Source: a bacterium
GTDB lineage: Bacteria; Babelota; Babeliae; Babelales; RVW-14
Reading direction: 5' to 3'
Assembly (NCBI GenBank): GCA_023249935.1
Contig: JAHFBQ010000001.1
Coordinates: forward strand, 1 to 53,735
DNA: 53,735 nucleotides
Position 1 is the first letter of the stretch. Each line of letters begins with the position of its first letter. Both the position numbers and the translations under genes were made by a program. The notes under the pieces were generated by a model, which was not told the origin of the DNA, did not search any database, and saw only the letters and a list, made by a program, of their open reading frames with translations. Positions 5,000 to 35,615 of this stretch are shown here, piece after piece.

Positions 5000-6417
5000 T
5001 TGGTGGTCCTTGTATGTGCTAGCGAATCTTTTATTCCATATAGTTTAAGAGCAGATCGATAACCAACGTTGGGGACAATTTTTGAAGAACTATGGATGGG
5101 AGAAATTCCTGCATGGATGGATTTTACATCAGCTTCTATCCCAACTGTTTCAAGGGCTGAGTAATGTACCCATTTGCTGAGTGCTTTGTTGGTAATAACG
5201 CCTTGCAAAAATACATATACTAGGCCGCAGCTCAAAAATAACCATTTCCATTGTTTGGCTGTATTTGCCATGAATAATGGTTTTACCAGTAACCCTATTA
5301 ACAGGGCGAGAAGTATTACTGGCAAATAGATATAGCGGCTACAATGAACGAAAAACGATGGCCAACATAAAATTAAAATTGAAAAACTAAGCAATACAAG
5401 TAATCCTTTGTAGGGATTATTTCTCCAGAGCAAAACTATGCCGCTAATGAGTAGTGCTATGATTGTAAGTTTTAAGCACAGAGATAATGTTGAACCATTA
5501 GGTAACCATTTGAGTCCGATTAGATCAAAAAAACAGGTAAGTAGGTCGAAAAATTTGTCCTTAAAACTAACTGTTGTTTTTGTGACTGAAAAAATACCGA
5601 GCGAGGCAATTTGGGTGGTTAGAGGATATGCCCAAAGACGCAGTGCAAGGTAACTTATAACTGGTATAGAGAAAAGGGATCCAGCAAAGAAGCATTCGTT
5701 CAATCGTTGTTGCCATTTTTCCTTCGAAAAAAGCAGAATAGCGATGATTGGTATAGCTGGGAATATTACAAGCGTTTCTCTTAGGCAGAGACCGAAAAAC
5801 AACATTATATTTGCAAGAATAAATAATTGTTTATGCATTGGTCGCCGAGCTAGCCACCAACATAAAAGTGTAAGTACAATGAGAAACAATAAACCCTGTA
5901 GGCTATTTTGTACATAGCATTGCCAGAAAAAATATTCTTTAAGGCTTGTGTGCAAACCAAAAAATAAAGCAGCAACTAAGCCACTCCAGGGATGTACTAA
6001 GATTGCTAAAGTATTAAAAATTATGAGGCTATTAATTGTATGTAAGGCAGTGTGGATGAGATGAAATTTGTATGGTTTGAGTCCAAAAAATTTGTAATGG
6101 GTTCCCATTACTAGTACGAGCAGGGGACGATAAATAACCTCTAAAAAACTTAATCTTGGTGTATGCTTCTCATCGAGTGGTTCGTTTGATGCGAGTATGC
6201 AGTCACCATTTTTTACGACACGAATAACATCTCCAATTGAATTATACTTGCCGTTATACATCATGCCGTAATCATCATCGTGGAAACCAATTGAGGTATG
6301 TTGCAGTCCCATAACTAAAAAAATAATAAAGCCTACGAGGATATTCATTGCCAGGAGCAATTTTTTATTAGGTAGGGCAATGATTGTAGAAGGGAATAAA
6401 TTGCTAAGTTTAATCAT
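4975..6417 (-). CDS. GT-C-fold membrane glycosyltransferase-like protein, PMT/TMTC-like paralog (short C-terminus)
   Basis: 480 aa. Motifs GFHDDDYG, IYRPLLVLVMG, FFWQCYVQNSLQG, CLRETL, DLIGLKWLPNGS and SRYIYLP. Its ATG overlaps the upstream stop as ATGA (6414-6417). Confidence 0.7.
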   Translation of the reverse strand: MIKLSNLFPSTIIALPNKKLLLAMNILVGFIIFLVMGLQHTSIGFHDDDYGMMYNGKYNSIGDVIRVVKNGDCILASNEPLDEKHTPRLSFLEVIYRPLLVLVMGTHYKFFGLKPYKFHLIHTALHTINSLIIFNTLAILVHPWSGLVAALFFGLHTSLKEYFFWQCYVQNSLQGLLFLIVLTLLCWWLARRPMHKQLFILANIMLFFGLCLRETLVIFPAIPIIAILLFSKEKWQQRLNECFFAGSLFSIPVISYLALRLWAYPLTTQIASLGIFSVTKTTVSFKDKFFDLLTCFFDLIGLKWLPNGSTLSLCLKLTIIALLISGIVLLWRNNPYKGLLVLLSFSILILCWPSFFVHCSRYIYLPVILLALLIGLLVKPLFMANTAKQWKWLFLSCGLVYVFLQGVITNKALSKWVHYSALETVGIEADVKSIHAGISPIHSSSKIVPNVGYRSALKLYGIKDSLAHTRTTKCLSMPHH

Positions 6418-7712
6418 TGGCTTAACTTTCTATACAGGCTTACTCCTAGTGGTGATCCTATGCCATCAGCAATCTGTTCTTGCTCTAGGTGTGTTCGAGC
6501 AACCCATACTTGCATTCTTTGATTGGTAACAACTCCTTGGACTGTTGCATAGAGTATAAATACCGCAAAAAATAAATATTTTGATCGTTGAGTTAGATTT
6601 GAGCTTAAAAAGCCAATTAGCAGCGCAAAACAGAGTGTTGGTAGGTATAAATAGCGGCTGCAATGACAAAGTAATAATGATGGCCAGCTGAGGAGGATGA
6701 GTCCGCAGGTGAGTACTGCAAGATAGTTTTTATAAGCATTTTGTCTCCACGTGCTGACTACAAAAATTCCAAGTGCTACCAATGCAGAAAGTTTGATTAA
6801 GGTATATCCCTTAGGTAACCAATGGAGACCAATCATATCCATAAACCAGGCAACCCAGTCGAAAAACTTGAGATTTATGGTTTGCAATAAGCTGTGATTG
6901 TTTTGGGTGAAGTTTTTTATACCAATGCATTGAACTGAGGTTGAAAATGGGTGTGCCCATAGACGGAGCCCCATGTAGGCGGCGATGGGAATGAGGAAGA
7001 GAACGGTGGATTTGAAGACTTGTTTTAAGTTTCGTTCCTCAAAAAACACGAATAATCCAACAAGAACTGGTAACACAATCAATGTTTCTCGAAGTAGCAG
7101 CGTGATAAAAAAAAGAACTAAGAAACCAATCAAGGTCGGTATCCATCGTCGTCGATACCATAACAAAAAAAATAATACCATGATACAAAGAAGTCCTGTC
7201 TCAAGGCTATTTTGAACATAGCATTGCCAAAAGAAATAATCTTTTAAATTGGTGTGTAATCCCCAGAAAAGAGACAGGGGTATGGCACAGAGTGGGCCGC
7301 TATACATTGTTACTACATTGAGAATAGTAAGTGTGGTGATTGTGTGCAGGGTTGTATGTACTAAGTGAAAGTAATAGGCATTCATACCAAAAAATTTATA
7401 TTCGGTGCCCATGATGAGCAAAACAAGTGGGCGATAGAGTGTTTCAAGAAAATTTTTCTTCTCAACCGTCTCCTTGTCAAGCATGGTTCCGGCGCAGGTG
7501 ATCATGTCGCTGTTGCTGAAAATAGCTTTTATGTCGTGTAAAGAGTTATAACGACCATTGTAAGTGAATCCATAATCATCAGCATGGAACCCAATATTTG
7601 TATGCTTGGCTCCCATGAAATAAAAAACTATGCTCGCAACAATGAGATTAGCGAGGAGAAGTAATATTCTATTAAGGGACTTGCTTTCGCCCGAGTATTT
7701 TAAATTTTGCAT
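6414..7712 (-). CDS. GT-C-fold membrane glycosyltransferase-like protein, PMT/TMTC-like paralog (short C-terminus)
   Basis: Motifs GFHADDYG, LYRPLVLLIMG, FFWQCYVQNSLETG, LLRETL, DMIGLHWLPKGY and SRYLYLP. The start is uncertain (ATG 7712 or 7742). Either choice overlaps the upstream gene end at 7672. Confidence 0.65.
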   Translation of the reverse strand: MQNLKYSGESKSLNRILLLLANLIVASIVFYFMGAKHTNIGFHADDYGFTYNGRYNSLHDIKAIFSNSDMITCAGTMLDKETVEKKNFLETLYRPLVLLIMGTEYKFFGMNAYYFHLVHTTLHTITTLTILNVVTMYSGPLCAIPLSLFWGLHTNLKDYFFWQCYVQNSLETGLLCIMVLFFLLWYRRRWIPTLIGFLVLFFITLLLRETLIVLPVLVGLFVFFEERNLKQVFKSTVLFLIPIAAYMGLRLWAHPFSTSVQCIGIKNFTQNNHSLLQTINLKFFDWVAWFMDMIGLHWLPKGYTLIKLSALVALGIFVVSTWRQNAYKNYLAVLTCGLILLSWPSLLLCHCSRYLYLPTLCFALLIGFLSSNLTQRSKYLFFAVFILYATVQGVVTNQRMQVWVARTHLEQEQIADGIGSPLGVSLYRKLSQ

Positions 7713-9318
7713 GAGCGTAATCCCAAGTAATGAACCATACATTGTTACTGAAACGTTCTATGTCTACAGCTGTAGCGTTTTTTTTCTCGCAATGAAGCAA
7801 TTCTAATTCCTGTGCGTTGCTTAGTTCAATTGTTATGCTATTGTTGTGTATCATTTGTATTACAGCGGTTTTATCTGAACGAGGAATTGCGCGCGCGTGA
7901 TCCTGTCGAGGCATTCTTATTGCCGGACCAGATTGATATACAAAATATGATTCGACAGGTTTGTCATCCAAAAACCAGACAGCTTGCGCGGTTCCCATAT
8001 CGAACCAATGAGTTGGAAGACCTATAAAACAGAGCGGTTCACGTTGCCAGCCAGCTTCAGGGAGATCTTGAGTTACTAAGGTGCGTGTGCTTGTATCAAG
8101 CCAATGTAAGGCGAATTCACGTTCTTTCATATTGGCAAAAACATAGCAGGCGTTAGTTGCAATGTAGAAGAGAGTGAGAACACAAAACAAGTTTTTCTTT
8201 GAGGAGATACCCTGTAGAAGTAGTATCAGTGTAACGATTATCCACGGTAGTGCCATGTACATGTATCGTTGCTGATAATGCATAAGTAGTCCAGGCCAAC
8301 TGAACATGATGGTTGAAATAAAACAGAAGAGAATCATTTTTTTGTGTTTGCTTTTGAAAAATAAAATAGCAAGTACTATGATAATGACGAACAGCAGGCA
8401 GCCGTTGGCGATGCGATGGCCCTTTGGCAACCAGGTAAGGCCAAGAATGTCATAGAGGTAGGTAAGAAACTGCATGCTGCGGGAAATCTGTTTTGTGATA
8501 AATGATTGCCATGAGAGTGTGAATCCCAAAGTGGTTGTATTGCTTGCGACAAAAGGCATACAGTCAAGTCGAATCAAGCAGTAGCCAAGTGCTGTAAAGA
8601 TAAAACCTAACGATGCTTTGCATGCTAGCCACAAAGAGTTACGTGTAATTTTATTGGTATACACAAGTGTTGCTAAAAACACCCAAGCACACAAAATGAT
8701 ACTTGCCTCTTTGAGGAGTAGATTGAGGAAAAAAAGCGCTATTGTGCCCAGGTACCAGTGCAACCGCCGCGTCTGTAGCCATCGATAAAAGCAGATAAAA
8801 ATGAGTCCTAGAAAAAAAAGTTCTATAAAATAGGTCTGTGCGCTGATCCAACCAAGCCAGTTTTGCAAACTTGGGTGGAATCCGAAAAACAATGCTGCAA
8901 GTAACGATGCTGTAATGTCAAAAAAGTTGCGCATAATTAAAAAAAATAGTCCGGTATTGAGTGCGTGCAAAATAATGGTAACTAAAAAATAACCATACGC
9001 TTGAGTGCCAAAAAGTAAGGTTTGTGGCCAGTAGTATACAAACGATAGAGGGCGATAGAGGCCCTGTAAAAAAGAACCTCGATCTTGGCCAGATCCTGAA
9101 GGATGATTGATGCTCTCCATATTGCCTTCGGTAAACAAATTTTTTAGATCAGCAAAACTTTGAAGTTTGCTATGTAAAATATTTGCCCAATCATCTGTCT
9201 TGAAACCCCATTTAGTGAATGGGATGCCGAGAATCAGAATTATAGTAGCAATAATTAGAAGAGATATAATCCAATCTTGTTGCCGATCATTTTTTAAGAT
9301 ATGCATAGTGATTTCCAT
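7672..9318 (-). CDS. GT-C-fold membrane glycosyltransferase-like protein, PMT/TMTC-like paralog (long form)
   Basis: 548 aa. Motifs WGFKTDDWANI, LYRPLSF...FGTQAYGYF...LHALN, LLKEAS, DILGLTWLPKGH and QQRYMYMALPW. The C-terminal soluble domain ends FITWDYAHAKFKIL. Confidence 0.7.
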   Translation of the reverse strand: MEITMHILKNDRQQDWIISLLIIATIILILGIPFTKWGFKTDDWANILHSKLQSFADLKNLFTEGNMESINHPSGSGQDRGSFLQGLYRPLSFVYYWPQTLLFGTQAYGYFLVTIILHALNTGLFFLIMRNFFDITASLLAALFFGFHPSLQNWLGWISAQTYFIELFFLGLIFICFYRWLQTRRLHWYLGTIALFFLNLLLKEASIILCAWVFLATLVYTNKITRNSLWLACKASLGFIFTALGYCLIRLDCMPFVASNTTTLGFTLSWQSFITKQISRSMQFLTYLYDILGLTWLPKGHRIANGCLLFVIIIVLAILFFKSKHKKMILFCFISTIMFSWPGLLMHYQQRYMYMALPWIIVTLILLLQGISSKKNLFCVLTLFYIATNACYVFANMKEREFALHWLDTSTRTLVTQDLPEAGWQREPLCFIGLPTHWFDMGTAQAVWFLDDKPVESYFVYQSGPAIRMPRQDHARAIPRSDKTAVIQMIHNNSITIELSNAQELELLHCEKKNATAVDIERFSNNVWFITWDYAHAKFKILGRKQVP

Positions 9319-10273
9319 GAAGATGTTGATTTGGCGTTACACCAACAAGCTCGTTAACGACAAACATTGGGCGGCGCTTTAATTCTTGAAATACTTTGCT
9401 TAGGTAGATGCCAAGTACACCAAGTGCCAAAAAGTTACAGGCAAACAAAAAAAGAATTGCCAGCATAAGCGATGTCCAACCAGTCATAACAACAAGTCCA
9501 AATATTTTCATGATAAGCGCTGTTAGGGCGCCAAGAATACACAGTGCAATAACTCCTAGTGCGCCAAATACGAGGATGTACATCGGTGCGGTAGAGAATG
9601 AGATTATATTTTCAAGCGCAAAAATAGTCAGTTTTGTGTAGTTATACTTTGATTCTCCAGTTGCTCGACTACGACGAATAAAAGGCACAGATTTTTTCGG
9701 TAGCCCAGACCAATAGATGAGGCCGCGGACAAATACTTGGTTTTCAGGGAGGAGCTTAAAAGTATCAATAGCGCGTTGGCTGAGTAAGCAAAAATCGCCA
9801 ACATTTCTTGGCATATCGATCTTGGTTAGTTTCTTGAACAGAGGATAGAAAAGGTTGGAGGTAAATTTTTTGAGCCAAGATTCATTGAGTCGTTTAGTGC
9901 GTTGGCCGAAGACGATATCATAGCCCTCGAGAAAATGTTTTTCGAAATCAATAATAAGGTCTGCTGGATCTTGTCTGTCAGCATCGATGAGTACTACCGC
10001 GTTGCCTCGAGCATGATGAATGCCAGCGTACGTTGCATTTTCATGTCCAAAATTTCTTATGAATGAAATAATTTTAACGCGGCTATCTCCAGCGGCTAAT
10101 TTTTTTAAAATATCGAGAGATCCGTCCCAGCTGCCGTCGTTAACAAAAATAAGCTCGGTGGTTGCAAAGTGCGACAACTTGCCGAGTACTGATGATAGTT
10201 CGGCGTATAACGGTAATAAATTGTGTTCTTCGTTGAGCAGTGGAATAACAATTGAAAGCAACGGTGCTTGCAT
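9287..10273 (-). CDS. GT2 polyprenyl-phosphate sugar synthase (GtrB/ArnC/DPM1-like)
   Basis: Motifs LSIVIPLLNEE, FVNDGSWDGS and IDADRQDP. Two C-terminal hydrophobic helices are present, as in bactoprenol-phosphate glycosyltransferases. A purine-rich RBS lies before ATG 10273. Confidence 0.8.
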   Translation of the reverse strand: MQAPLLSIVIPLLNEEHNLLPLYAELSSVLGKLSHFATTELIFVNDGSWDGSLDILKKLAAGDSRVKIISFIRNFGHENATYAGIHHARGNAVVLIDADRQDPADLIIDFEKHFLEGYDIVFGQRTKRLNESWLKKFTSNLFYPLFKKLTKIDMPRNVGDFCLLSQRAIDTFKLLPENQVFVRGLIYWSGLPKKSVPFIRRSRATGESKYNYTKLTIFALENIISFSTAPMYILVFGALGVIALCILGALTALIMKIFGLVVMTGWTSLMLAILFLFACNFLALGVLGIYLSKVFQELKRRPMFVVNELVGVTPNQHLHGNHYAYLKK

Positions 10274-10330
10274 AAAACTCTCTCTTTCTCAAGGCGGCGG
10301 CTACTCTCGAATCTAGTCTATGAGTGAATT

Positions 10331-11386
10331 TTATACAAGGAGAAGTATTGCCACTACGTTGAAAAAGAATGAAGCATAAATAGGAATGATGAGGCTTTTG
10401 ATGACACTGCGCACATCAGCCTCACCAGTATTTTCGTAAAGAAGTCCAAGTGTAGCCATAAAGGCTGGTAGTGATGTGTAGATAAATGCCGGGTGTATTT
10501 TAATAAAAATTTGGGGGAGAAGATAGGTTATTACGGCTAGTAATAGGAGGCCTGCTTGGCGGCGCTTGGTTGTATGTGCAATGAGTCCTATTAAACTTGA
10601 AGCCCAAAATAATAGAAACGCATAACGAAGCCATTGGTGTGAGCTAGGGATCCATTCAAGTCCTAGTAGTGCAACAAATGTGTCGTTGATGTTAAGCAGT
10701 GTAGCTACAACTGAGATGGAAATATTGCTGAGCACAACGGTCAATTGTGCAATAAGATAAGTAAGAAAAAGTAAGCAGCATTGATTTGTGGGTAGCGGCC
10801 AAAAATAAGCTGCAGCTAAAGTAAGTATTGCGCTACCAAGCCAAATGTTGATTGGTGTCCAACAAAGGATAGCAACGCTTAGAGCAATTAAGCGATACGT
10901 TGATGAGGGTGTTTTTGTACAAATAAATTTTGCAGCAATGATGCTGAGTAGTACTAGTGTGCATTCAAGAACTTGAGGGAAATACTCAACTTTTCCAAAC
11001 CAGCTTAAATGACTTGGATGAATACCACTATACCAGCATACCCAGAGCACCATGAGTTTAGAGAGGTATGGCCGGGCAATGTACAAAAAAAGAGCGATAT
11101 TAAGTGTATGTATGCCAATGACTAAAAAACTTGCTGGTAGGGATAAGGGGTCTTGTGCTAGGTTGAACCACGAGCTTACTGTGAGTAGAATTTGATCTTG
11201 AGAAAAAATTGCTGGTAAGTGAAGCGGCGGTTGTTTTTGAACAAGTAATGTCCAGAAAAGAAATACTGGTACCGTAGCGGCAATAAAAAGTAGCGTGACT
11301 GGTAATGCCTCGACTGAGTTGTATACAAAGTCAGAGCATTGAATCCAAGCTCTGAGAAACGTTTTTTTGACAGTTTTTTTATTCAT
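10331..11386 (-). CDS. Divergent, probably non-catalytic member of the same GT-C paralog family (membrane core only)
   Basis: 351-aa multi-pass protein. It keeps the family motif ALLGLEWIPSSH (compare DLIGIKWIPSGF). The first-loop DD motif is replaced by SQDQIL, the YRPL block is degenerate, and there is no C-terminal domain. Confidence 0.6.
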   Translation of the reverse strand: MNKKTVKKTFLRAWIQCSDFVYNSVEALPVTLLFIAATVPVFLFWTLLVQKQPPLHLPAIFSQDQILLTVSSWFNLAQDPLSLPASFLVIGIHTLNIALFLYIARPYLSKLMVLWVCWYSGIHPSHLSWFGKVEYFPQVLECTLVLLSIIAAKFICTKTPSSTYRLIALSVAILCWTPINIWLGSAILTLAAAYFWPLPTNQCCLLFLTYLIAQLTVVLSNISISVVATLLNINDTFVALLGLEWIPSSHQWLRYAFLLFWASSLIGLIAHTTKRRQAGLLLLAVITYLLPQIFIKIHPAFIYTSLPAFMATLGLLYENTGEADVRSVIKSLIIPIYASFFFNVVAILLLV

Positions 11387-11417
11387 ATGAGTACCCTAGC
11401 AATAAAAGTAGGAGCAG

Positions 11418-12122
11418 ATGAAGAAATTATCTATTGTTATCCCTTGCTATAATGAATCAAAGAGTATTCCATATTTACTGGAACAGTTTTCTGAAGGTAT
11501 TGGTACGCGAGATATCGAAGTAGTATTGGTTGATAATGGTTCTTTTGATGAAACACCTGCTGTGATTACTGCATTGCTGCCGCGGTACCAATTTGCCAAA
11601 ACAACTCGTGTAGAAAAAAACCAAGGATATGGGTTTGGGATTTTGAGTGGTCTGCGTGTTGGGACTGGAGATTTTTTGGGATGGATGCATGCTGATCTTC
11701 AATCTGATCCAAATGATGTGATGCGTGCCTATGACATCATTACCAAAAGTGCGCATGCGCAGCGACTTTTTGTAAAGGGTACACGTTCTGGCAGGCCACT
11801 ATTTGATCAATTTTTTACCTTGGGCATGAGTACTTTTGAAACTATGTATCTGCAAAAACCACTCTGGGACATTAACGCTCAGCCAAACATTTTCCATCGA
11901 AGCTTTTATGAGCGTTGGGATAATCCACCTCATGACTTTGCGCTTGATTTGTATGTGTATTGCATGGCAAAAAAGCTTGGGCTGCGTATGCAGCGGTTTC
12001 CCGTAGTTTTTGGTCCGCGTCAATTTGGGACTTCTTCATGGAACTCAGGGCTCAAAGGGCGATGGAAATTTATTACGCGGACATTCTCATTCTCGGCCGA
12101 TGTAAAGAAGCAGTTGAGGTAG
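11418..12122 (+). CDS. Soluble GT2-family glycosyltransferase (DPM1/GtrB-like catalytic domain without membrane anchor)
   Basis: Motifs LSIVIPCYNES, LVDNGSFDET and HADLQSDP. AGGAG lies 5 nt before ATG 11418. Confidence 0.75.
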   Translation: MKKLSIVIPCYNESKSIPYLLEQFSEGIGTRDIEVVLVDNGSFDETPAVITALLPRYQFAKTTRVEKNQGYGFGILSGLRVGTGDFLGWMHADLQSDPNDVMRAYDIITKSAHAQRLFVKGTRSGRPLFDQFFTLGMSTFETMYLQKPLWDINAQPNIFHRSFYERWDNPPHDFALDLYVYCMAKKLGLRMQRFPVVFGPRQFGTSSWNSGLKGRWKFITRTFSFSADVKKQLR

Positions 12123-13716
12123 GACCACTTTCCTTCGAATACGGGTGCCATGTGCACTTGTGGAAGAAGCTCTGCCAGTAATTAAAAGTTCTTAGATCAT
12201 TTGGTGTGCCCCAACAGACGTAAAAATCAACTTTGAAAACATAGACTTGTAACCCAAATTTTATGAGTTCTCCAGCAAGGCTATCAACGTAAAATTCGTT
12301 GTTAACACGAATATTGTTTTTATAGAGTGATTCAAGGCCAGCTTGAAAATAAGCAGCCTTTTTAAAATAAAAGGCGCCAACGATTGCATGATCGTTTTCT
12401 GGTGTATCTGAAATTGGTTTTTTTACAGAGACTGAGATTGCTTTGTTATTCGCATCCGTCGCAACCCAGCCATACATCTGTGGATTGATTTTGGCAGATG
12501 GGTGATTTTTAAATGTCCAAATGATCGCATCAACATCAGGTCTAGAGCGTAGAGCTGCGTATTTTTGAGCATCATACAGCATGCTGTTGTCGCAGGCGCC
12601 GATGGTGACAGGACTTTCTTGGTCAATATTTGCCAACCCAATGGCACAAGTACATGCTTGGCCTTCGGTGACGGCATTGATGCCAATGACCGAAGCTTGC
12701 GAATAGGTTTCGTTTAACGTTTGTTCTAGCGGTGATGCATCGAGGTGTTCTTGTAAGCAGACAAAGATTTGTTTTTCTGCTTGAGGCAGAGCGGCGGCAG
12801 CTTGCACGATCATTGGCTTACCGCTGACGGGAATGAGCGGCTTTGGCAATGAATATCCTTCATCACTAAAGCGTTTACCTCGGCCGGCTAGGGGGATTAG
12901 GTTGACGCTGTTTTTTTCTACCCCGCAACCGCCCTTTGTCATTCCACAAGTTATCTTTTCGCTCAATGCCCTAAAATAATCAGACCATGCTTGGTATTCC
13001 CGTAAGTCCTGAGGCGTGCCCCACTGAAGCATGTGTTCAATCTCATAAATCGAGACTGGCAAACCATCTTCAACGAGCAGATTGTATACAAGGCTGACGT
13101 AAAATTCACCGTTGATGCTTAGGTTGCGCTCCATTGCACGAGCAAAATATTTTTTAACAAGGCTGCCATGTGCAAAGTAGTAGGTACCATTGGAGGCATA
13201 CTCTTGCATGCGGTTATTAGTGAATGGTTCTTTTTCTTTAATTTGCTCGAGCCATTGGTCTGTATCTTTGATAAAGGCGTAGTTGGTGGTGCCAAGCATG
13301 TGTGGATGAAATCCTCGATACGATGGGATTGCTCCGGCGGCACCGCGGCTACGGGTATGATGTAAGAAATTCTGATAGTCCCAGTAGGTGCCAAAGTCGC
13401 AGTAATTAACGATGACTTCTTCTTGATCATCGATCAAATGTTGGACCTGTAGGGTTGCAAACACGGGCCCTTTTTTATGAGGAGGAATGCTGACTATGGT
13501 TCCTGAGGGGGCAATACGTTGTAAAATTTCACGCATTGCAGTTGTTTGTAAATGTTCTTCGTTGCAGATGAACGTAAATTTTTTTTCACCAGGAAAGAGG
13601 TTGACGACGTGTTCAATGATTGGCTTGCCATCAACGGGAATTAAAGGTTTTGGATCTTTATAGCCAGCAGCCTGAAAACGAGCACCAATGCCTGACATTG
13701 GAATGATGATGTGCAT
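12073..13716 (-). CDS. Tandem-duplicated sugar-phosphate nucleotidyltransferase-fold protein (two NTP_transferase-like halves)
   Basis: Two copies of the N-terminal signature: IIPMSGIGARFQAAGYKDPKPLIPVDGKPII and LIPLAGRGKRFSDEGYSLPKPLIPVSGKPMI. Each is followed by ...NGEFYV.../...NNEFYV... and WGTP.DL. GGAGAG precedes ATG 13716 (track start 13734). The 3' tail overlaps the convergent GT2 gene by 50 nt. Confidence 0.75.
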   Translation of the reverse strand: MHIIIPMSGIGARFQAAGYKDPKPLIPVDGKPIIEHVVNLFPGEKKFTFICNEEHLQTTAMREILQRIAPSGTIVSIPPHKKGPVFATLQVQHLIDDQEEVIVNYCDFGTYWDYQNFLHHTRSRGAAGAIPSYRGFHPHMLGTTNYAFIKDTDQWLEQIKEKEPFTNNRMQEYASNGTYYFAHGSLVKKYFARAMERNLSINGEFYVSLVYNLLVEDGLPVSIYEIEHMLQWGTPQDLREYQAWSDYFRALSEKITCGMTKGGCGVEKNSVNLIPLAGRGKRFSDEGYSLPKPLIPVSGKPMIVQAAAALPQAEKQIFVCLQEHLDASPLEQTLNETYSQASVIGINAVTEGQACTCAIGLANIDQESPVTIGACDNSMLYDAQKYAALRSRPDVDAIIWTFKNHPSAKINPQMYGWVATDANNKAISVSVKKPISDTPENDHAIVGAFYFKKAAYFQAGLESLYKNNIRVNNEFYVDSLAGELIKFGLQVYVFKVDFYVCWGTPNDLRTFNYWQSFFHKCTWHPYSKESGPTSTASLHRPRMRMSA

Positions 13717-13929
13717 TAATTCTCTCCATCTCAATGTGAAATTGCTTACTAACTGAAAGTTAGCAGGTTTTTCTAGGCATTCAAGTAGATTGTAATTGCT
13801 GAATATTTTGCCGGGTATATCTAAAACCCTTTACATCTGTAAAAGATGTGCAATCTTTGCTCTAGTAAAAAGAGGAAGGAGGCGCAGTGTGTTCTAAGAT
13901 GTAGTGCCATCATTAAAAAGCTTACTCAG

Positions 13930-16900
13930 ATGAAATATACTCGATATCTTCTGCTCATCGTTCTTCTTTTCAATAACAATCAAATGTATGCCGGGCTGGT
14001 TGCAGGAACTAACATTGCGACAAATGGTCAGTCAGTAGCAATAGAAAATCTTTTGCGAGGTGATTTTGTTGTTGGGTATGACTTAAAAACACAAGTGTAC
14101 CCTGTGATAGCGGTAACGGCTGTGCAGTTGCATAGGGCTGTGGTGACGTATGCGATTGCAACTGATCGTGGCGTAATTGTAGTGACAGCAGATCAATTAC
14201 TCTTCGATGTTGTTGGTAAAAAGTTTGTAACAGCTGATCAGTGGTCTACGATGTGTATCTTTTTGACTAAAGATATGCAGCAGCTGCCGACGCGAGAAAT
14301 AAAAATCGATAGTGCCGTTGCAGCAGATTGCTATGATGTATCGTTGGAGCAGCCATATCTTTTTTTTGCATCTGATGCGCAAGTTTTGATGCATAACAAT
14401 CCGCTTGTTCTAGCGGTTCCGCTGACGCTTGCAGCTGTTGAGCTGGCTCCTCAGCTTATAAACTTATGCATGATGCTTGAAAATGCTCACAGCAAAGCAG
14501 CGGTTGCTGTGCGAAGAGCGCAAGCGCTGACTCAGCCAGTAGTTCCAACGCCGATATTGTCCGAACAAGTTGCAAAACAGCCTGCGCAGCAAATGAGAAT
14601 AGTACAGGTTTCACAAGCTACATCTCAAAAAAATAATCAATCAATACCTCGTCATGAAGTGCAAGCGGTACAACCTATTCTTTCAGTTGCGAAATCATCA
14701 AAGAGTAATGAATTATTTGTTTCGCAGCCAACACAAGGCTACAAATTTTCAGATGAAGCTGTACAGCGGGCAAAGTCGATAGATGTAAAGCTCTTACAAA
14801 ATCCCATCATGTATAACGATCGTCATTCAGAAATAAGTGTAACTGGATCGATTAATGGAGATGTGGTCTGCTCTAATGAATCTCAATCGAGAGGATATCT
14901 TCATATCAACCTCAACACTGAGCGAAACAACGAACGAGTCCAGGAAGCGAGAGATCGAGATCGGTGGGCGAGAAGATCGGGCAAGAGGCTGATTATCAAA
15001 GGAAACCAACATTATTTTACACCGGCTTGGTTTCTTGAGAATGCTCAAGCTTTGGCCGAACAAACAGGAATGTCGCTAGATGACGTTCTGTTTACTAATT
15101 TTGAAAATTTTCAATACCCAAACTACTTGCAAGTGTTGCACCATCGGCGCAACTATGATCAAAAGATTCTGGAGCTGCGAGATTTGTTGAGACAGGAAGA
15201 AAAGGGGTGGTTTTCATCAACTACAGAAGGCAAAAAATTAAACAGAAGATTTTGCTCAGGAGAAGGATTTAAGTTTTTCCACGGCAGTGATGAGGTGAAG
15301 TTATCGGAGCTGATTGAACGGTTAGCAAAAAAAGTAGAAGCGAGGCAAGAAGATGAACATAAAAAATACCTCGCCTGGCAAGCAAAGCAGGCGGAAGAAG
15401 CAGAAGTTGCAAGGCAGCAGGCCTTGTTTGCAGAACGAATTGTACGAGCGAAAAGCTGCTACAATCGAGTAATTGCCGAGCAACAACTTGAGGTAGCGGC
15501 TCACAGCGGCTTGTATGAGAAGTACGAAGAAATTGTGGTTCATGGCAGATTATATCGCAGCATAGATGAACCTAAGGCATTTTCTCACGTGTTTAAATCT
15601 GTACAAAACAACGACTACAGCGAAAGCTACAAAAAGTTTTTAGCTGATCGAAACATGCCTATCTTGCGCCAGAGCAGGAATGATGCGGCCAAAGCAATTG
15701 ATGAAATCATTCGTGAAATGTATCAAGCAGATCAACATTTTGGTTATTTATACGATGTTGTTCATGCGCACAGCATCGCGCTTCGGCTAATTTCTGTTGC
15801 CGATCGAGCTGAGCAATACAACGACTCTCCTATGATGTCAGCAGCGACTGCGCAGCTGCTTGAAGCGGCGCGCGGATTTGTACGTTCTGCTGAGCAACTT
15901 GGTGAGTACTATGTGACAAGCAACATGGCCGCGCATCATACAACAACTACAATTAATCATCTGATTCATAAGGTGTTGATTCCGCTGGAAAGGCATGCTG
16001 CAACGGTTGCTGGCAATAAAGTATCGTTACCGCAAGAACTTGCACGCAGTACAGTATGCCCGGTAACAGTTTTAGCCAATCTGTACAAAAATCCTGAAAA
16101 CAAAGAGCTTGCTCAGCAGTGTAAAGCGGTACTGGCAGATCTTTTGGCAGAAGAAGAGTTTATTGTGCAAGCAGCAGCAAAGGGTAGCGTTCAAGTCCCA
16201 ACAGAAACGCCGCTTGTCAAACTTGCAACGCAAGCGGGAAACCTTGGCAGTTGTACGGCAGCACAAGCACCGCCATACATACCATCAGCAACCATGGCAC
16301 GGGGTCGTCAAAAAGAATTTTTCCGCAAGGTTTCCATATCTAGCAACCAGGGAGATCGAGAAGATATATCGCCAGAAGCTTTTGTGAATGGTGCGATCAT
16401 TGATTGTGCTCATAAGCATAAGGAGTCATTTGAGGATAAACGTCAAGCGGTTATCAGCGACATAAAAGAGTATGAAAAAACACTGTTTGATCTAACGCCG
16501 CGATCTGTGAGCATCGACGAAGCAGCGGCACAGCAATTGCAAAACCATGCCCCATCGTGGATAACGGCGACTATGACTGGTAACGGGCAAGTTGCCGTTG
16601 CCGCTCATTGCTATCGGCTCGCATCATACGATGCATCAACAAGAGCATGGCATTTTATTGTTGATGCAGATGAACCAGCCCTATATGATCGAATGGTTCC
16701 ATATGTTCATGAGTTTGTCAAAGCTGAAGAGAAACGCGAGCTTGATGAGCTGCGCAAACTCACAGCATTCTGGCCCCAAGAGATACGCTATGCATTCAAG
16801 ATCGGTTGGCCAGTGCGCAAAGATCAGCCACAAGAAAATTCGGGTAAAAGAATATGGCAAGCGCAAGCAGCGGGCATACGCCACGGGAACTTAGCAAGAA

Positions 16901-17724
16901 TCTTCGGAGAGTATTCATACTCATTTCAAGCGCTTGATTTTATGCTTGCCAACAATCTTGCACCATCACGTATTGTACATATTCTGCGTAATGGAGAGTA
17001 CCCCAAAGCTCATCGTTCCGACCGCGAGCTACGCAGCTTAGACGGTATCGTAGTGGTTTTCGAGAAAGATACAAAAACCATTTGCGGCATTGGTACGATC
17101 AATGAACTTGATCTACTCAATGAGTATCCATCAAGAAAAACACACCAATGTATTCCCGACCAAGAGCCAGCGTCTTCTTCAGGTGTCTGTCTTCCTGAAA
17201 AAAATGCTGAAGAGTCATCCTGTGGGGGCAGCTGCGACAATACCGACACGACAAATACACATGGTTTATGCGGCAGCAGTTATAACAAAGAACATGAATT
17301 TCCCTCATCTTCGCCAAACGAAGGCTTACCAGAACCAGAAACTAAACCCTGCGCTTGGAGCCAACAGCCGCAGCTCCCGGGATTTGATGAGGATGGTGTG
17401 GTGGAAGTGCTTGCTGATGGAAGTAATCAAGTTTTGCCTGAGACAACTTCTTCTGAAGGTGATGATGGCAAAATAATATATAAGCACGGTTTTAAGTATC
17501 ATCCAAGAATAAGACAAAGAGGATTGCAGGACCCTAAGGCACACAATTTTCCATACTCATTTGACGATATTATTTTAAAAACTAACCCAATAAAACAAAA
17601 AGATGGCTCCTTATTGTACATATTAGAAGGAATTTTGAATGAAAAGCGCGGAGTGTTCGAAATCGCTATTAATACAGAAACTAAAACCATTTTTCATAGA
17701 ACATTTAGGGGATCAAAAAAATGA
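13930..17724 (+). CDS. Secreted polymorphic-toxin-like protein: signal peptide, N-terminal Hint-like domain, long mostly helical body, conserved pre-toxin region, variable C-terminal domain (CT1)
   Basis: Signal peptide MKYTRYLLLIVLLFNNNQMYA at ATG 13930 (the track start at 13846 adds a Cys/Lys-rich extension). Hint blocks lie at 13993-14397. The 3' constant region is repeated twice downstream. An immunity-like ORF overlaps the stop. Confidence 0.75.
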   Translation: MKYTRYLLLIVLLFNNNQMYAGLVAGTNIATNGQSVAIENLLRGDFVVGYDLKTQVYPVIAVTAVQLHRAVVTYAIATDRGVIVVTADQLLFDVVGKKFVTADQWSTMCIFLTKDMQQLPTREIKIDSAVAADCYDVSLEQPYLFFASDAQVLMHNNPLVLAVPLTLAAVELAPQLINLCMMLENAHSKAAVAVRRAQALTQPVVPTPILSEQVAKQPAQQMRIVQVSQATSQKNNQSIPRHEVQAVQPILSVAKSSKSNELFVSQPTQGYKFSDEAVQRAKSIDVKLLQNPIMYNDRHSEISVTGSINGDVVCSNESQSRGYLHINLNTERNNERVQEARDRDRWARRSGKRLIIKGNQHYFTPAWFLENAQALAEQTGMSLDDVLFTNFENFQYPNYLQVLHHRRNYDQKILELRDLLRQEEKGWFSSTTEGKKLNRRFCSGEGFKFFHGSDEVKLSELIERLAKKVEARQEDEHKKYLAWQAKQAEEAEVARQQALFAERIVRAKSCYNRVIAEQQLEVAAHSGLYEKYEEIVVHGRLYRSIDEPKAFSHVFKSVQNNDYSESYKKFLADRNMPILRQSRNDAAKAIDEIIREMYQADQHFGYLYDVVHAHSIALRLISVADRAEQYNDSPMMSAATAQLLEAARGFVRSAEQLGEYYVTSNMAAHHTTTTINHLIHKVLIPLERHAATVAGNKVSLPQELARSTVCPVTVLANLYKNPENKELAQQCKAVLADLLAEEEFIVQAAAKGSVQVPTETPLVKLATQAGNLGSCTAAQAPPYIPSATMARGRQKEFFRKVSISSNQGDREDISPEAFVNGAIIDCAHKHKESFEDKRQAVISDIKEYEKTLFDLTPRSVSIDEAAAQQLQNHAPSWITATMTGNGQVAVAAHCYRLASYDASTRAWHFIVDADEPALYDRMVPYVHEFVKAEEKRELDELRKLTAFWPQEIRYAFKIGWPVRKDQPQENSGKRIWQAQAAGIRHGNLARIFGEYSYSFQALDFMLANNLAPSRIVHILRNGEYPKAHRSDRELRSLDGIVVVFEKDTKTICGIGTINELDLLNEYPSRKTHQCIPDQEPASSSGVCLPEKNAEESSCGGSCDNTDTTNTHGLCGSSYNKEHEFPSSSPNEGLPEPETKPCAWSQQPQLPGFDEDGVVEVLADGSNQVLPETTSSEGDDGKIIYKHGFKYHPRIRQRGLQDPKAHNFPYSFDDIILKTNPIKQKDGSLLYILEGILNEKRGVFEIAINTETKTIFHRTFRGSKK
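13993..14397 (+). other. Degenerate Hint (intein/hedgehog-type) domain, Gly at position 1, terminal His-Asn retained
   Basis: G-LVAGTNIATNGQSVAIENLLRGDFVVGYD ... VIVVTADQLLFDVVGKKFVTADQW ... CYDVSLEQPYLFFASDAQVLMHN. Confidence 0.65.
17009..17396 (+). repeat. Pre-toxin handle, copy A (inside the full-length toxin gene)
   Basis: Manual alignment to 19221-19605 (copy C). This includes about 160 nt (17051-17209 vs 19263-19421) with only 3 mismatches. The 3' part also aligns to 18059-18240 (copy B). Confidence 0.9.
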
Positions 17725-18023
17725 AATATTTAACGTTAATGCCTGATTATACTGGGTCTTGTATTAGGGATGATTTTGAAGGTCAAATTGAACCAACTCT
17801 TTTGGGATTGCCACAAAGCTTTCTTAGAAGGTTATATACATGGCAAGATTTATATAAAAAAATAATTCCACTAGACCAAGATGAGCGTGAAAAAAAAATT
17901 CATGAAATAGAAAGATTGGACCAAGAAGGTCTTTCTCTTGCCAAGGAGTTAAGACAACTGATACCTGGTGGTGCTAAAGTAAAATACTTTAGTGAAGGGC
18001 TTGGGAAAATTATTCACAGCTAA
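17721..18023 (+). CDS. Putative immunity protein for CT1
   Basis: 100-aa ORF whose ATG overlaps the toxin stop (ATGA, 17721-17724). The call rests on position only; no family recognised. Confidence 0.6.
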   Translation: MKYLTLMPDYTGSCIRDDFEGQIEPTLLGLPQSFLRRLYTWQDLYKKIIPLDQDEREKKIHEIERLDQEGLSLAKELRQLIPGGAKVKYFSEGLGKIIHS

Positions 18024-18058: not shown

Positions 18059-18240
18059 CCATCATGCGGTGCTAGCAACAGTAATACTGACACGACAAAT
18101 ACACATGGTTCATGCGGCAATGGCAGCATGAGAGAATACGACCACCTCTCATCTTCACCAGACGAAGGCTTGCCAGAGCCAAAAACTCAACCCTGTGATT
18201 GGAGCCAACAGCCGCAGATCCCGGGATTTGATGAGGATGA
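18059..18240 (+). repeat. Pre-toxin handle, copy B (3' part only)
   Basis: Aligns to about 17214-17396 of copy A and encodes ...TDTTNTHGSCG...SSSPDEGLPEPKTQPCDWSQQPQIPGFDED. The frame is open from 18032, directly after the immunity-1 stop region. Confidence 0.85.
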
Positions 18241-18694
18241 AGAGGTTTGGGAGAAAGGTTCTCTGGAAATCGAAAAAGAACTTCCTAATAGCAAAGATAA
18301 TCAACAAGAGAGTGATAATAGTGGTTTGATTCCAGATGATAATAAGCTAGCTAGAGGGCGAGCTATAAATGAAAATGGAAGGGTTTTTGAGAAGTTTCTT
18401 GAAAAAGAACTTGGAGCTCGTGGAAGTTTTAGAGTCACAAGCAAAATAAACGGGACTCGAGAATTTGATGGAGCTGTAGGAAATGTTTGGTATGAGGCAA
18501 AAAGCGGCGAATATTGGAATTTATTGCTATCAAATGAGAAAAAGTTAGCAAAATTTAAATCTGATATGGGAAAAGGTTTGCAAATTACTCGCGAATATGG
18601 AGTAGCTTATCAACTTCACTCGAACACCCCTATTCCAGAAATTATAAAGAAATGGTTAATCAAAATGGAGATTCGATTTATTGAATGGTTATAG
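18128..18694 (+). CDS. Orphan toxin cassette 2: handle remnant fused to a PD-(D/E)xK-like (restriction-endonuclease-fold) candidate nuclease domain
   Basis: Homology to the big gene extends upstream of the ATG to 18032. Downstream of PGFDED comes a new domain containing REFDGAVGNVWYEAKSG (D-x8-E-x-K). Confidence 0.6.
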   Translation: MREYDHLSSSPDEGLPEPKTQPCDWSQQPQIPGFDEDEEVWEKGSLEIEKELPNSKDNQQESDNSGLIPDDNKLARGRAINENGRVFEKFLEKELGARGSFRVTSKINGTREFDGAVGNVWYEAKSGEYWNLLLSNEKKLAKFKSDMGKGLQITREYGVAYQLHSNTPIPEIIKKWLIKMEIRFIEWL

Positions 18695-18727: not shown

Positions 18728-19210
18728 ATGTCAGTTTCAGCATCTTTTGATTTACGAGTTGTACGATCTTCAGGGAAAGAGCTTGCTTCTCAGATTGAGA
18801 TTATCAAAGCTCTAGCAAATTATGGATGGTCATTTTTTCGTGGCGAATATGTTTGCTATTTGCCTTATGGTGATAACGATAATTTTAATTGGACCGCTGA
18901 GATTATCAGTTTTGAATCGTTTTTAAAAATATTGGAACAAAAAGAAAAGAGATCCGAACTCATTGGAGTTTCAATGACATGGAAAAATTCGAACATTGAT
19001 GGAGAATTATTAATTTGGGGAGCTGAAGAGGCGAGAAAGAATAAAATTCACACACCAATATCATTCAATATGGCAGCAAATCGGAAACGATTTATTTCTC
19101 AAAATAATTATGAAATTACCGATGTTAATTGGTATATGGAAAAATTACTTCCTGCGCTTAATCAGAATGGTATGTATGTTGAGTATTTTTCTTATGAGGA
19201 ATATGACTAA
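18728..19210 (+). CDS. Putative immunity protein for orphan toxin 2
   Basis: 160-aa ORF 33 nt downstream of the orphan toxin, same strand, with AAAAGG before the ATG. The call rests on position only. Confidence 0.55.
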   Translation: MSVSASFDLRVVRSSGKELASQIEIIKALANYGWSFFRGEYVCYLPYGDNDNFNWTAEIISFESFLKILEQKEKRSELIGVSMTWKNSNIDGELLIWGAEEARKNKIHTPISFNMAANRKRFISQNNYEITDVNWYMEKLLPALNQNGMYVEYFSYEEYD

Positions 19211-19651
19211 CACTTTAAAACTCATCGCCACGACCGCGAGCTGCGCAGCCTAGACGATATTGTAGTGGTTTTCGAGAAAGATACAAAAACCATTTGCGGC
19301 ATTGATACGATCAATGAACTTGATCTACTCAATGAGTATCCATCAAGAAAGACACACCAATGTATTCCCGCCCAAGAGCCAGCGTCTTCTTCAGGTGTCT
19401 GTCTTCCTGAAAAAAATGCTGCCGAGCCTTCACGTGGCAGCGACGGCGACGATACTAACGCGACAAATATGCATGGTTCATGTGGCAGTACAAGAGAATG
19501 CGACCTCATCTCATCTTCACCAAACGAAGGATTGCCAGAGCCAAAAAATCAACCCTGTGGTTGGAGCAAACAGCCGCAGCTCCCAGGATTTGATGGGGAT
19601 GAGGAGGTGGGGAGCAATGTTGATCTGCAGCCAACGCTCTCTTTTGTATGA
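19211..19651 (+). pseudogene. Orphan handle copy C without a toxin domain (remnant)
   Basis: The frame is open directly after the immunity-2 stop: HFKTHRHDRELRSLDDIVVVFEKDTKTICGIDTINELDLL...WSKQPQLPGFDGDEEV, then 15 unrelated codons and a stop. There is no upstream start context apart from GTG 19265. Confidence 0.7.
19221..19605 (+). repeat. Pre-toxin handle, copy C
   Basis: See copy A. This is the longest and best-conserved duplicate. Confidence 0.9.
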
Positions 19652-20154
19652 GGAACTTTATGAACGGTGACTTTAAAGTCGCCGACCTCGATTGTTTGAC
19701 CTGGTGCTAGTTCAACAAATTTTACACATTTAGTTACCGTTGCTCCGGCAAATGCGAGATTAAGAAATGTTTTTACGTGATTTTCAATGCCTACTGGACC
19801 ATAAATAGTAAACGGGCTTGGTGCAGCAATATCTTCTCCAAGGTCATGGGACCACTGGTTTACATGTAACCACGTCAAAATATCTGGAAGGTCGCCAATA
19901 TGATCAAAATGAAAATGAGTATAAAAAGCGCCGTGTAGCGTGGTTACATCGACATGTTTTGTTGCTGCCTGCAGAATGCCAGGACCAGCATCGACAAAAA
20001 CATGTGTGTTGCCGGCGCTTACGAGGTTACCAGGAGCTTTGCGGTGTGGTTGTGGCATGCATGTGCCAGAACCAAGGATAGTAAGCTGCGCAGAATAAGC
20101 GGTTTGTTGTAGGGTGATAGAGAGTAGAGAAAAGAGTAGCTGCTTGATTGACAT
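19549..20154 (-). CDS. MBL-fold metallo-hydrolase with N-terminal signal-like sequence, apparently 3'-truncated (likely pseudogene)
   Basis: Motifs LTILGSGTCMP, HFHFDHIGD (HxHxDH) and VPHTKESVG (motif-3 His). The frame then runs into the reverse complement of handle copy C (...STLLPTSSSPSNPGSCGCLLQPQG*). The later Asp and His motifs are missing. Strong RBS AAGGGAGG. Confidence 0.6.
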   Translation of the reverse strand: MSIKQLLFSLLSITLQQTAYSAQLTILGSGTCMPQPHRKAPGNLVSAGNTHVFVDAGPGILQAATKHVDVTTLHGAFYTHFHFDHIGDLPDILTWLHVNQWSHDLGEDIAAPSPFTIYGPVGIENHVKTFLNLAFAGATVTKCVKFVELAPGQTIEVGDFKVTVHKVPHTKESVGCRSTLLPTSSSPSNPGSCGCLLQPQG

Positions 20155-20166
20155 GGGCGTCCTCCC

Positions 20167-20724
20167 TTAATCAAGTTCTTTATCTTCAATTTCTTCTTTA
20201 GTTGTAAGTCCACTGATAGCAAAAGCTCGTTTGAGAGCCATGGCTTCAGCAACTTTGAGGATCATAGCGTTGGTGTACTGCTGCCAGATTGGAGCATCTT
20301 TTTTGTAATATTCTTTTATGCTGACAAAGACGGTGGTTGCCTTGTCTCTGTCCTTACGAAATACGCTGCAATAGGCGCCTGACAGTTTGCTTTTATCAAA
20401 CAGCAGATGTTCCGGGCCATAAGAAATATGGAGGCTGCCATCATCTCGTTTGGTCAAAATGTCATTTTGATAAACAACATCACTCTCGATGCCATTAAAA
20501 TTTTCATTAAGATTGGCTATTTTTAGATAGCCATCTCTGCTAGTCAAAATCGTTGTTTTGCTGCCGTACTTAATAAAATAGATCTCTTTTTTTAACGGAT
20601 CTAGATTGTACTCTTTGCAGAGATACATAAAGGTCTTAAATTCGTCATCGGTGGCTCCAGGAGCCACCGATTTGCGTAGAAGTTCTTCGTTTTCATGAGC
20701 TGTTGTACCGGTTGTTTTTGCCAT
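20167..20724 (-). CDS. RecT/Bet-family single-strand annealing protein (short form)
   Basis: GATDDEFKTFMYLCKEYNLDPLKKEIYFI, SRDGYLKIA and ...IWQQYTNAMILKVAEAMALKRAFAISGLTTKEEI match my recollection of the phage Bet/RecT signature blocks. Confidence 0.7.
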   Translation of the reverse strand: MAKTTGTTAHENEELLRKSVAPGATDDEFKTFMYLCKEYNLDPLKKEIYFIKYGSKTTILTSRDGYLKIANLNENFNGIESDVVYQNDILTKRDDGSLHISYGPEHLLFDKSKLSGAYCSVFRKDRDKATTVFVSIKEYYKKDAPIWQQYTNAMILKVAEAMALKRAFAISGLTTKEEIEDKELD

Positions 20725-24597: not shown

Positions 24598-24686
24598 ACG
24601 CTCTCCTTGTGCTTTGTTGAGCCTTGAGCATACTAAGTTTGAGAGAGTATGTAACCAATCTAAATGTAAAAATTCTGGAGGCATTA
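24598..24686. promoter_or_regulatory. Divergent intergenic control region between the GT-C/kinase operon and the plus-strand GT-C pair
   Basis: 89-bp gap flanked by clear SD sequences on both strands (AAGGAG for 24597, GGAGG for 24687). Promoter hexamers not confidently assigned. Confidence 0.4.
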
Positions 24687-26285: not shown

Positions 26286-26286
26286 T

Positions 26287-35500: not shown

Positions 35501-35615
35501 CTGCTCATCCTGATGAGCAGCCCTTCGACACCGCTCATCCTGAGGAGTGACGAAGTCGCGTCTCGAAGGACATGTGCGGTGCTCAGGATAAACTTCAGCT
35601 ACGTCTCGAAGGATA
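35501..35615. repeat. Cluster of the same GC-rich repeat family (20-nt perfect palindrome CTGCTCATCCTGATGAGCAG plus two direct units ending GTCTCGAAGGA)
   Basis: CCGCTCATCCTGAGGAGTGACGAAGTCGCGTCTCGAAGGACAT (35531-35573) aligns with the reverse complement of 34644-34690. A second CGTCTCGAAGGA lies at 35602-35613. Confidence 0.8.

Follow-up and report, generated by a model that had tools for sequence, protein, structure and literature searches.

Hint domains are known in several roles, namely protein splicing in inteins, N-terminal cleavage and lipid transfer in hedgehog proteins, and release of the toxin tip by the PT-HINT and BIL domains of bacteria. The DNA considered here, referred to as the window, is a stretch of 53,735 nucleotides from a member of the Babelota (lineage RVW-14; contig JAHFBQ010000001.1, positions 1 to 53,735, assembly GCA_023249935.1). 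Within it, a 1264-amino-acid (aa) open reading frame (ORF) on the + strand (13930-17724) encodes a predicted polymorphic toxin in which a Hint domain (13993-14397) directly follows the signal peptide, at the opposite end of the protein from the position described for HINT in such toxins. Approximately 100 related predicted bacterial toxins share this layout, which has not been described previously.

The closest characterised relatives are the A-type BIL domains, and the one from Clostridium thermocellum (2LWY) is the best match to the Hint family of the window in both sequence and structure. A-type BIL domains undergo C-terminal cleavage through Asn, and their flanks are not ligated (PMC7765530). 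They have in common with the present family a terminal His-Asn, the lack of a nucleophile at position +1 (N157 in the window protein) and residence in variable secreted host proteins. However, A-type BIL domains possess Cys1 and the block-B His and are internal, whereas here position 1 is Gly, Ser or Ala, Gln stands in block B and the signal peptide immediately precedes the domain. PT-HINT (PF07591) belongs to the same superfamily and likewise occurs with swappable nuclease tips and immunity genes. In a survey of polymorphic toxins, HINT was placed only just before the toxin domain, as the initial annotation of the window had stated, and ZU5 and PrsW were the N-terminal autopeptidases, both proposed to free the toxin at its base during export (PMC3482391). 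Unlike PT-HINT, which adjoins the toxin domain, the Hint of the window protein (aa 22-156) lies about 1000 aa upstream of the tip (approximately aa 1181), has no nucleophile and leads into a hydrophobic segment. ZU5, a CxH thiol autopeptidase, and PrsW, a membrane metalloprotease, occupy the same position in toxins as the present domain, but their folds and chemistry are unrelated to it and no sequence relation was found.

Engineered Cys1Ala mini-intein tags, such as those made from Ssp DnaB, employ an N-terminal Hint to release cargo by Asn cyclisation with a native N-terminus. These tags resemble the present family in function, both being an N-terminal Hint without a nucleophile, and the DnaB mini-inteins are structurally close to the model of the window domain (TM ~0.8). 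The tags are laboratory constructs, whereas the family is natural and conserved, carries a block-B Gln and presents a hydrophobic cargo N-terminus. The Hog part of hedgehog offers a further parallel, since in this secreted protein too a Hint fold leads into a hydrophobic region that associates with membranes, the sterol-recognition region, but cleavage depends on Cys1 and occurs at the N-terminus of the Hint, His-Asn is absent and the polarity of the reaction is opposite.

The Hint fold and the signal peptide junction

The domain G22-N156 contains the blocks A, B, F and G in the order that defines the Hint superfamily. From the family alignment, position 1 is G22 (13993-13995), block B is T86-A-D-Q89 (14185-14196, within the string VTADQLLFD), block F comprises D136 (14335-14337) and Y143 (14356-14358), the latter in place of the usual His, and block G is H155-N156 (14392-14397). 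Numbering is from the ATG at 13930, and the coordinates were verified, with codon 13993-13995 specifying G22 and codon 14395-14397 specifying N156. All of the strings quoted in the initial annotation were located in the ORF, namely GLVAGTNIATNGQSVAIENLLRGDFVVGYD, VTADQLLFD, CYDVSLEQPYLFFASDAQVLMHN followed by N, and PLVLAVPLTLAAVELAPQLINLCMML (aa 158-183).

Searches with the window sequence alone gave matches near the limits of detection. Hint_2 of Pfam was matched at E=0.003 with 18 bits, under the gathering cutoff of 28.4, and 2LWY was matched at E=0.017 from end to end (aa 22-156 against residues 4-138), both sequences finishing in HN. The window protein itself had no PT-HINT match at the curated threshold, and word-index homologue searches, whether started from the N-terminal domain, the whole protein or a 57-sequence alignment, returned only the protein itself. 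Scores under curated thresholds and empty word-index searches would be expected if the likeness to Hint were a chance match in an orphan protein, an explanation that now has a negligible probability. When 1.8 billion representatives were scanned exhaustively with HMMER, 125 proteins were retrieved at E<=1e-3, 29 of them at E<=1e-10; these matches are representatives clustered at 50% identity and carry no taxon labels. A profile of 57 members matched 2LWY at E=5.6e-23, Tetrahymena BUBL BIL2 at 4e-17 and mini-inteins at 1e-9. The PT-HINT model of Pfam was matched by 41 of the 57 relatives at E<0.01, the best at 8e-14 and some with more than 27.7 bits.

The structural predictions agree with the profiles. 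AlphaFold2, given the 57-sequence alignment, produced a model with a predicted local distance difference test score (pLDDT) of 95.2 and a predicted template modelling score (pTM) of 0.88; from the single sequence, the pLDDT was 31. Comparison of the model with the PDB by Foldseek gave top matches that were all Hint folds, led by the BIL domain structures 6Y75/6TMM and 2LWY (TM 0.88, with a root-mean-square deviation of 1.6 A on 2LWY) and including the DnaB, gp41-1 and RecA mini-inteins (TM 0.75-0.8) and hedgehog 1AT0 (TM 0.76). With a profile match at E=6e-23, a pLDDT of 95 and a TM of 0.88 to two solved BIL domains, the chance match is already refuted, and the profile searches and the predicted model together confirm 13993-14397 as a genuine Hint domain, far beyond chance. 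The suggestion of a Hint fold with ordered blocks, made in the initial annotation from the letters only, is thus borne out by profile, AlphaFold2 and Foldseek.

The Hint is preceded by a putative Sec-type signal peptide (aa 1-21, MKYTRYLLLIVLLFNNNQMYA; 13930-13992, + strand), read from the sequence as a basic n-region, a hydrophobic core and Ala at -1. Among 98 relatives, the residues before Hint position 1 are Leu or Ile at -3 and Ala, Ser or Pro at -1, and position 1 falls at a median of residue 25. These -3/-1 residues suit a signal peptidase I site, so that the mature protein should start at Hint position 1 or 2, and we infer that signal peptidase cleaves at or next to position 1. A lipoprotein signal was considered and rejected, because a lipobox and a position-1 Cys are both lacking. 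A longer ORF from the ATG at 13846 was also rejected, and the start at 13930 favoured, because the database gene call is 1264 aa and because of the median Hint start of the relatives. A strong Shine-Dalgarno-like run (GAGGAAGGAGG, within 13870-13905) lies about 45 nucleotides (nt) 5' of the 13930 start, with a two-codon ATG-TAG mini-ORF at 13899-13904 on its 3' side.

A residue pattern conserved across the family

A local hidden Markov model (HMM) built on the 125 proteins delimited 136 Hint domains, and 98 of the 125 proteins have the layout of signal peptide, single Hint and hydrophobic segment. In these signal-peptide-adjacent Hints, position 1 is Gly in 45, Ala in 26 and Ser in 19, and Cys in none of the 98. 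The block-B His position is occupied by Gln in 89 of 97 and by His in 7. At the other end of the domain, the block-F His is present in 84 of 95, the penultimate His in 94 of 94 and the terminal Asn in 93 of 94, while the +1 residue is Phe (41), Ala (14), Val (6), Ile (6) or Asn (5) in most, and never Cys or Thr. The remaining 29 domains of the same match list are mostly canonical Hints, with Cys1 in 21 of 24 and the block-B His in 22 of 28, so the loss of Cys1 and the change of the block-B His to Gln travel together. Across the 57 aligned sequences, which are 24-37% identical to the window, only the H155 column is invariant, and the few columns conserved at >=90% include N156 and Q89. An invariant H155 and a near-invariant N156 despite such divergence point to selection on the C-terminal active site.

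The initial annotation had correctly read Gly at position 1, TADQ in place of the block-B TxxH, and a retained His-Asn, but its description of the domain as degenerate is misleading: Gly, Ser or Ala at position 1, Gln in block B and the terminal His-Asn recur throughout the relatives, and the pattern, as judged from the aligned sequences, is a family design rather than the decay of one gene. It had also missed that the window copy lacks the block-F His, Tyr being found there in just two of 95 relatives. Measured against the known groups, the window domain falls below the PT-HINT gathering score, does not stand immediately before the toxin domain and has neither Cys/Ser1 nor TxxH, while ending, as PT-HINT does, in His-Asn; inteins, which interrupt conserved host proteins and ligate their exteins, differ from it in having an N-extein and nucleophiles at positions 1 and +1, here Gly and Asn. 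The altered N-terminal features and the departure from the PT-HINT position rule mark it as a derived variant of the Hint superfamily that is a member of neither A-type BIL nor PT-HINT.

The same residue pattern could be taken to mean that the Hint is catalytically dead and persists as a folded module, for example as a surface recognised in type II secretion, as a head that binds a receptor or as an intramolecular chaperone; His-Asn would then serve a structural purpose and the protein would remain uncut. The family-wide loss of Cys1 and the block-B His, which are the best-known catalytic residues, speaks for this view, as does the additional absence of the block-F His from the window copy, and the near-invariant Gln89 could signify a new, non-catalytic role. 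We nevertheless regard a dead Hint as unlikely, because, in a family diverged to ~25-35% identity, conservation is highest at the terminal His and Asn, and because the block-F His and the acidic residue at block F position 4, both part of the machinery of Asn cyclisation, are largely kept. Moreover, Hints without C-terminal cleavage, such as that of hedgehog, do not retain His-Asn.

A further conserved feature is the column of T121 (14293-14295 in the window), which is Cys in 82 of the 136 domains and Thr in the window protein and its closest subfamily. The conserved Cys could be structural, could form a disulfide after export or could be catalytic. In the last case it might act as an alternative nucleophile, in the manner of class 3 inteins, and sustain N-terminal chemistry or even splicing; some class 3 inteins are known to begin with Ala. 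This is very improbable, as the domain abuts the signal peptide and has no N-extein, the +1 residue is not a nucleophile and the window copy has Thr, not Cys, at this column. Assignment as a class 3 intein was rejected for want of an N-extein and of the Trp-Cys-Thr motif (block B position 12, block F position 4 and block G position 5), the corresponding residues being L91, D136 and M154 in the window and mostly Phe (or Leu), Asp/Glu and Thr/Val in the family.

Two other architectures were observed among the relatives. One protein (P0066) has a Hint of the Gly1/Gln type at aa 171-303, with a segment of ~140 aa between leader and Hint and an Ntox21 tip, so that the half-disabled Hint is not strictly bound to the signal peptide junction. 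In four others (P0063, P0103, P0073 and P0100), the signal peptide is followed by two to three tandem canonical Hints with Cys1, His-Asn and 'HNKGGGC' joints, and then by a clear transmembrane helix, with Tim44-like domains in three of the four. We know of no description of this tandem-Hint, transmembrane and Tim44-like architecture.

Predicted cleavage, export and the hydrophobic segment

The reading that we favour, with a confidence a little better than even, is that the Hint may be a self-removing leader of a Sec-exported toxin and may cleave only at its C-terminus, by Asn cyclisation. Signal peptidase I would generate the N-terminus of the Hint at or next to position 1, and as no N-extein remains after this cut, the acyl shift is not needed. 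The Hint would fold after export, and N156, aided by H155 and D136, would cyclise to a succinimide, cutting the chain between N156 and N157. Cleavage would shed the Hint of ~135 aa and leave the toxin body with NPLVLAVPLTLAAVELAPQLINLCMML as its free N-terminus. Up to that point, the Hint would act as a pro-domain masking a membrane-active segment during export, and the freed body would then deliver its C-terminal, nuclease-type tip to the target. Asn cyclisation still brings about C-terminal cleavage in inteins whose Cys1 has been changed to Ala. With regard to the route of export, no secretion system other than type II has been reported for Dependentiae; in Babela it is the sole one detected (PMC4378268), and its conservation in TM6 has been described (PMC4378268, PMC4776705). 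Export by Sec and type II secretion would be consistent with these reports.

The segment exposed by such a cleavage, aa 157-183 (NPLVLAVPLTLAAVELAPQLINLCMML; 14398-14478, + strand), adjoins His-Asn and is moderately hydrophobic, with a Kyte-Doolittle 19-aa maximum of 1.91. A hydrophobic stretch after the Hint, noted in the initial annotation, is a property of the family: of 97 members, 82 reach a Kyte-Doolittle 19-aa mean >=1.4 within 45 aa after His-Asn, compared with 7 of 357 control windows taken from other parts of these proteins. The stretch spans a median of 34 aa, and in many members Gly and Ala are abundant in it. When the best 19-aa window is scored on a rough, position-independent Hessa scale, its insertion energy (dG) has a family median of +3.5 kcal/mol, with one of 96 below 0, and is +5.6 kcal/mol for the window segment, compared with a background median of +16.5. 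These values indicate that the segments are clearly hydrophobic, yet mostly too weak for confident stop-transfer helices.

A number of points weigh against a self-removing leader. The signal peptide and membrane judgements were made with simple scales. The block-F His assists Asn cyclisation in many inteins, and with Y143 in its place the window copy may cleave slowly or not at all. The canonical tandem-Hint/Tim44-like proteins share the outline of signal peptide, Hint and transmembrane helix. In addition, the flank after the hydrophobic stretch has a net positive charge in 52% of members compared with 27% of controls, as would suit a membrane anchor whose C-terminus is intracellular. The last two observations belong equally to a different topology, in which the segment is a true stop-transfer anchor, with the Hint in the periplasm and the toxin body in the cytoplasm together with its immunity protein. 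Cleavage by the Hint would then shed the ectodomain only, and release of the toxin would need lysis, vesicles or a membrane protease. Seven of the 96 segments, with a rough dG below 1.5, are strong enough to insert, the transmembrane helix of the tandem-Hint proteins is obvious, and N-terminal membrane-embedded processing is known for toxins of the PrsW type (PMC3482391). An anchor is, however, slightly less likely in our estimation even than a dead Hint, because most of the segments, that of the window included, would not be predicted as stop-transfer helices, given their weakness and their content of Gly, Pro or Glu, and because the median span of 34 aa is unsuited to a single helix. A toxin confined to the cytoplasm of its producer also fits poorly with a diversifying toxin/immunity array.

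If the Hint is indeed self-removing, it raises the speculation, which we offer as tentative and rather doubtful, that the signal peptide, the Hint and the hydrophobic segment jointly constitute a hitherto unrecognised, self-activating delivery leader for the toxins of intracellular Babeliales/Dependentiae, whereby the Hint is shed, an N-terminus resembling a fusion peptide is exposed and the nuclease tip is carried across a membrane. The moment of Asn cyclisation would possibly be set by the pH or redox conditions of the compartment that the protein enters on type II secretion, and the exposed Gly/Ala-rich N-terminus, like a class I viral fusion peptide, would insert in the membrane of a host or competitor. 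Such a leader, if real, would define a new trafficking class of polymorphic toxins by their N-terminal domain and would be the natural counterpart of the engineered C-terminal-cleaving intein tags. Among the roles that the initial annotation had proposed for the Hint, those of self-removing pro-domain and delivery module fit the evidence, while the evidence is neutral towards a plug or an anchoring module.

With a self-removing leader, the family would represent a natural Hint without an N-terminal reaction, for which signal peptidase substitutes, and with only the Asn-driven C-terminal cleavage kept. Should the cleavage prove true, it would provide a new N-terminal processing and trafficking module for toxins exported by Sec and type II secretion in a poorly studied, obligately intracellular phylum, and an Asn-to-Ala mutant would give a direct handle on the arming of the toxin. 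It would also supply protein engineering with a naturally optimised C-terminal-cleaving Hint that has an unusual, conserved Gln in block B. In the library that was searched, no paper connects Dependentiae, TM6 or Babela with Hint domains, inteins or polymorphic toxins.

Toxin tips, cassettes and neighbouring genes

The identification of the gene as a polymorphic toxin, already made in the initial annotation, is upheld by its relatives and by the DNA that follows it. The tips of the relatives include Cytotoxic/ColE3, Ntox35, Ntox37, EndoU, Ribonuclease (barnase-like) and Ntox21, and the last 110 aa of 61 members fall into at least 23 clusters, so that a constant N-terminal part is combined with variable tips. 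The window in turn has an immunity-like gene, as yet a candidate, downstream of the toxin gene, and orphan tip and immunity cassettes that share its junction. The known tips of the relatives and the cassettes of the window together indicate a polymorphic toxin locus. A locus search with a narrow alignment yielded one genome locus and three metagenome loci; the loci L001 (from a metagenome-assembled genome of Candidatus Babeliales, the one relative tied to a named taxon) and L003 show the same order of toxin and then small ORF. Genomes of the Babeliales type would thus carry classic diversifying toxin/immunity arrays, for which the library searched contained no published description.

At 1264 aa, compared with a median of 339 aa, the window protein is the longest of its family. 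After the hydrophobic segment comes a long region without a family match (aa 184-870; 14479-16539, + strand), the first ~300 aa of which are common to one full-length relative (P0003) and which most relatives do not have. It is followed by a conserved middle domain of ~190 aa (aa 871-1065; 16540-17124, + strand), common to 25 family members and with the motif IYG..FG.HA...M....I.PS.V..AI..G. Weak DUF4258 matches were obtained in 3 of 14 members and a PDB sequence search with the middle domain gave nothing meaningful; it could be a second, BECR-like, toxin domain or a translocation domain.

A Cys/Ser-rich linker and a conserved pre-toxin junction (SSSPNEGLPEPETKPCAWSQQPQLPGFDED; 17216-17421, + strand) lead to the tip. 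This stretch is repeated at 18060-18265 and at 19428-19627 with 71-83% nucleotide identity, and the junction consensus is SSSP[N/D]EGLPEP.T.PC.WSQQPQ.PGFDED. At the protein level, the identity with the orphan cassette is 57% over 56 aa, after which the sequences diverge, and the junction is the recombination point at which tips are exchanged. The presumed toxin domain is the C-terminal tip (about aa 1181-1264; 17470-17724, + strand), recognised by its position after the junction and by the nuclease tips of the relatives; searches of Pfam and the PDB with the tip gave no match. Searches of Pfam and NCBIfam with aa 197-1264, the tip, the immunity candidates and the second Hint copy described below were likewise without a match.

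The toxin stop codon is overlapped (ATGA) by a 100-aa ORF (17721-18023, + strand), which by its position is the candidate cognate immunity protein. Next is a first orphan toxin cassette (18060-18694, + strand, with an ORF at 18128-18694), which has the same junction and a different tip, the latter 48% identical (E=4e-48) to aa 595-756 of P0003. The 160-aa ORF that follows it (18728-19210, + strand) is the immunity candidate for this cassette, being 45% identical (E=6e-48) to the ORF directly 3' of P0003 in locus L007. A truncated orphan remnant (19217-19627, + strand) consists of the end of a middle domain, a linker and a junction without a tip, and repeats 17005-17421 with nucleotide identities of up to 89% (over 272 nt, with 17005-17276); it adjoins genes for an MBL-fold protein and RecT (19549-20724, - strand).

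A second family member of 256 aa is encoded elsewhere in the window (35595-36365, - strand), where the local family HMM scores 66 bits (E=1e-19). Its signal peptide is followed by a Hint (Gly1, ADAQQ in block B and LILVHN followed by F at the C-terminal end), a hydrophobic segment and a tail rich in Pro, while a toxin tip and an obvious immunity gene are both lacking. An identical protein is present in two other public samples. The second copy may be a recombination stub, or may be a sign that the module functions alone.

No secretion machinery was found near the toxin gene, and an Rfam scan of the window gave no matches. The gene is flanked on its left by nucleotidyltransferase and glycosyltransferase genes and on its right by those for the MBL-fold protein and RecT. 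Genes for GT2 proteins, PMT_2-like membrane glycosyltransferases and sugar-nucleotidyltransferases are abundant at 1549-13734, 24624-27897 and 38205-41116, and the same stretches hold several large ORFs without a family match. The locus of P0003 (L007) has similar GT2 neighbours, suggesting a syntenic region of envelope glycosylation.

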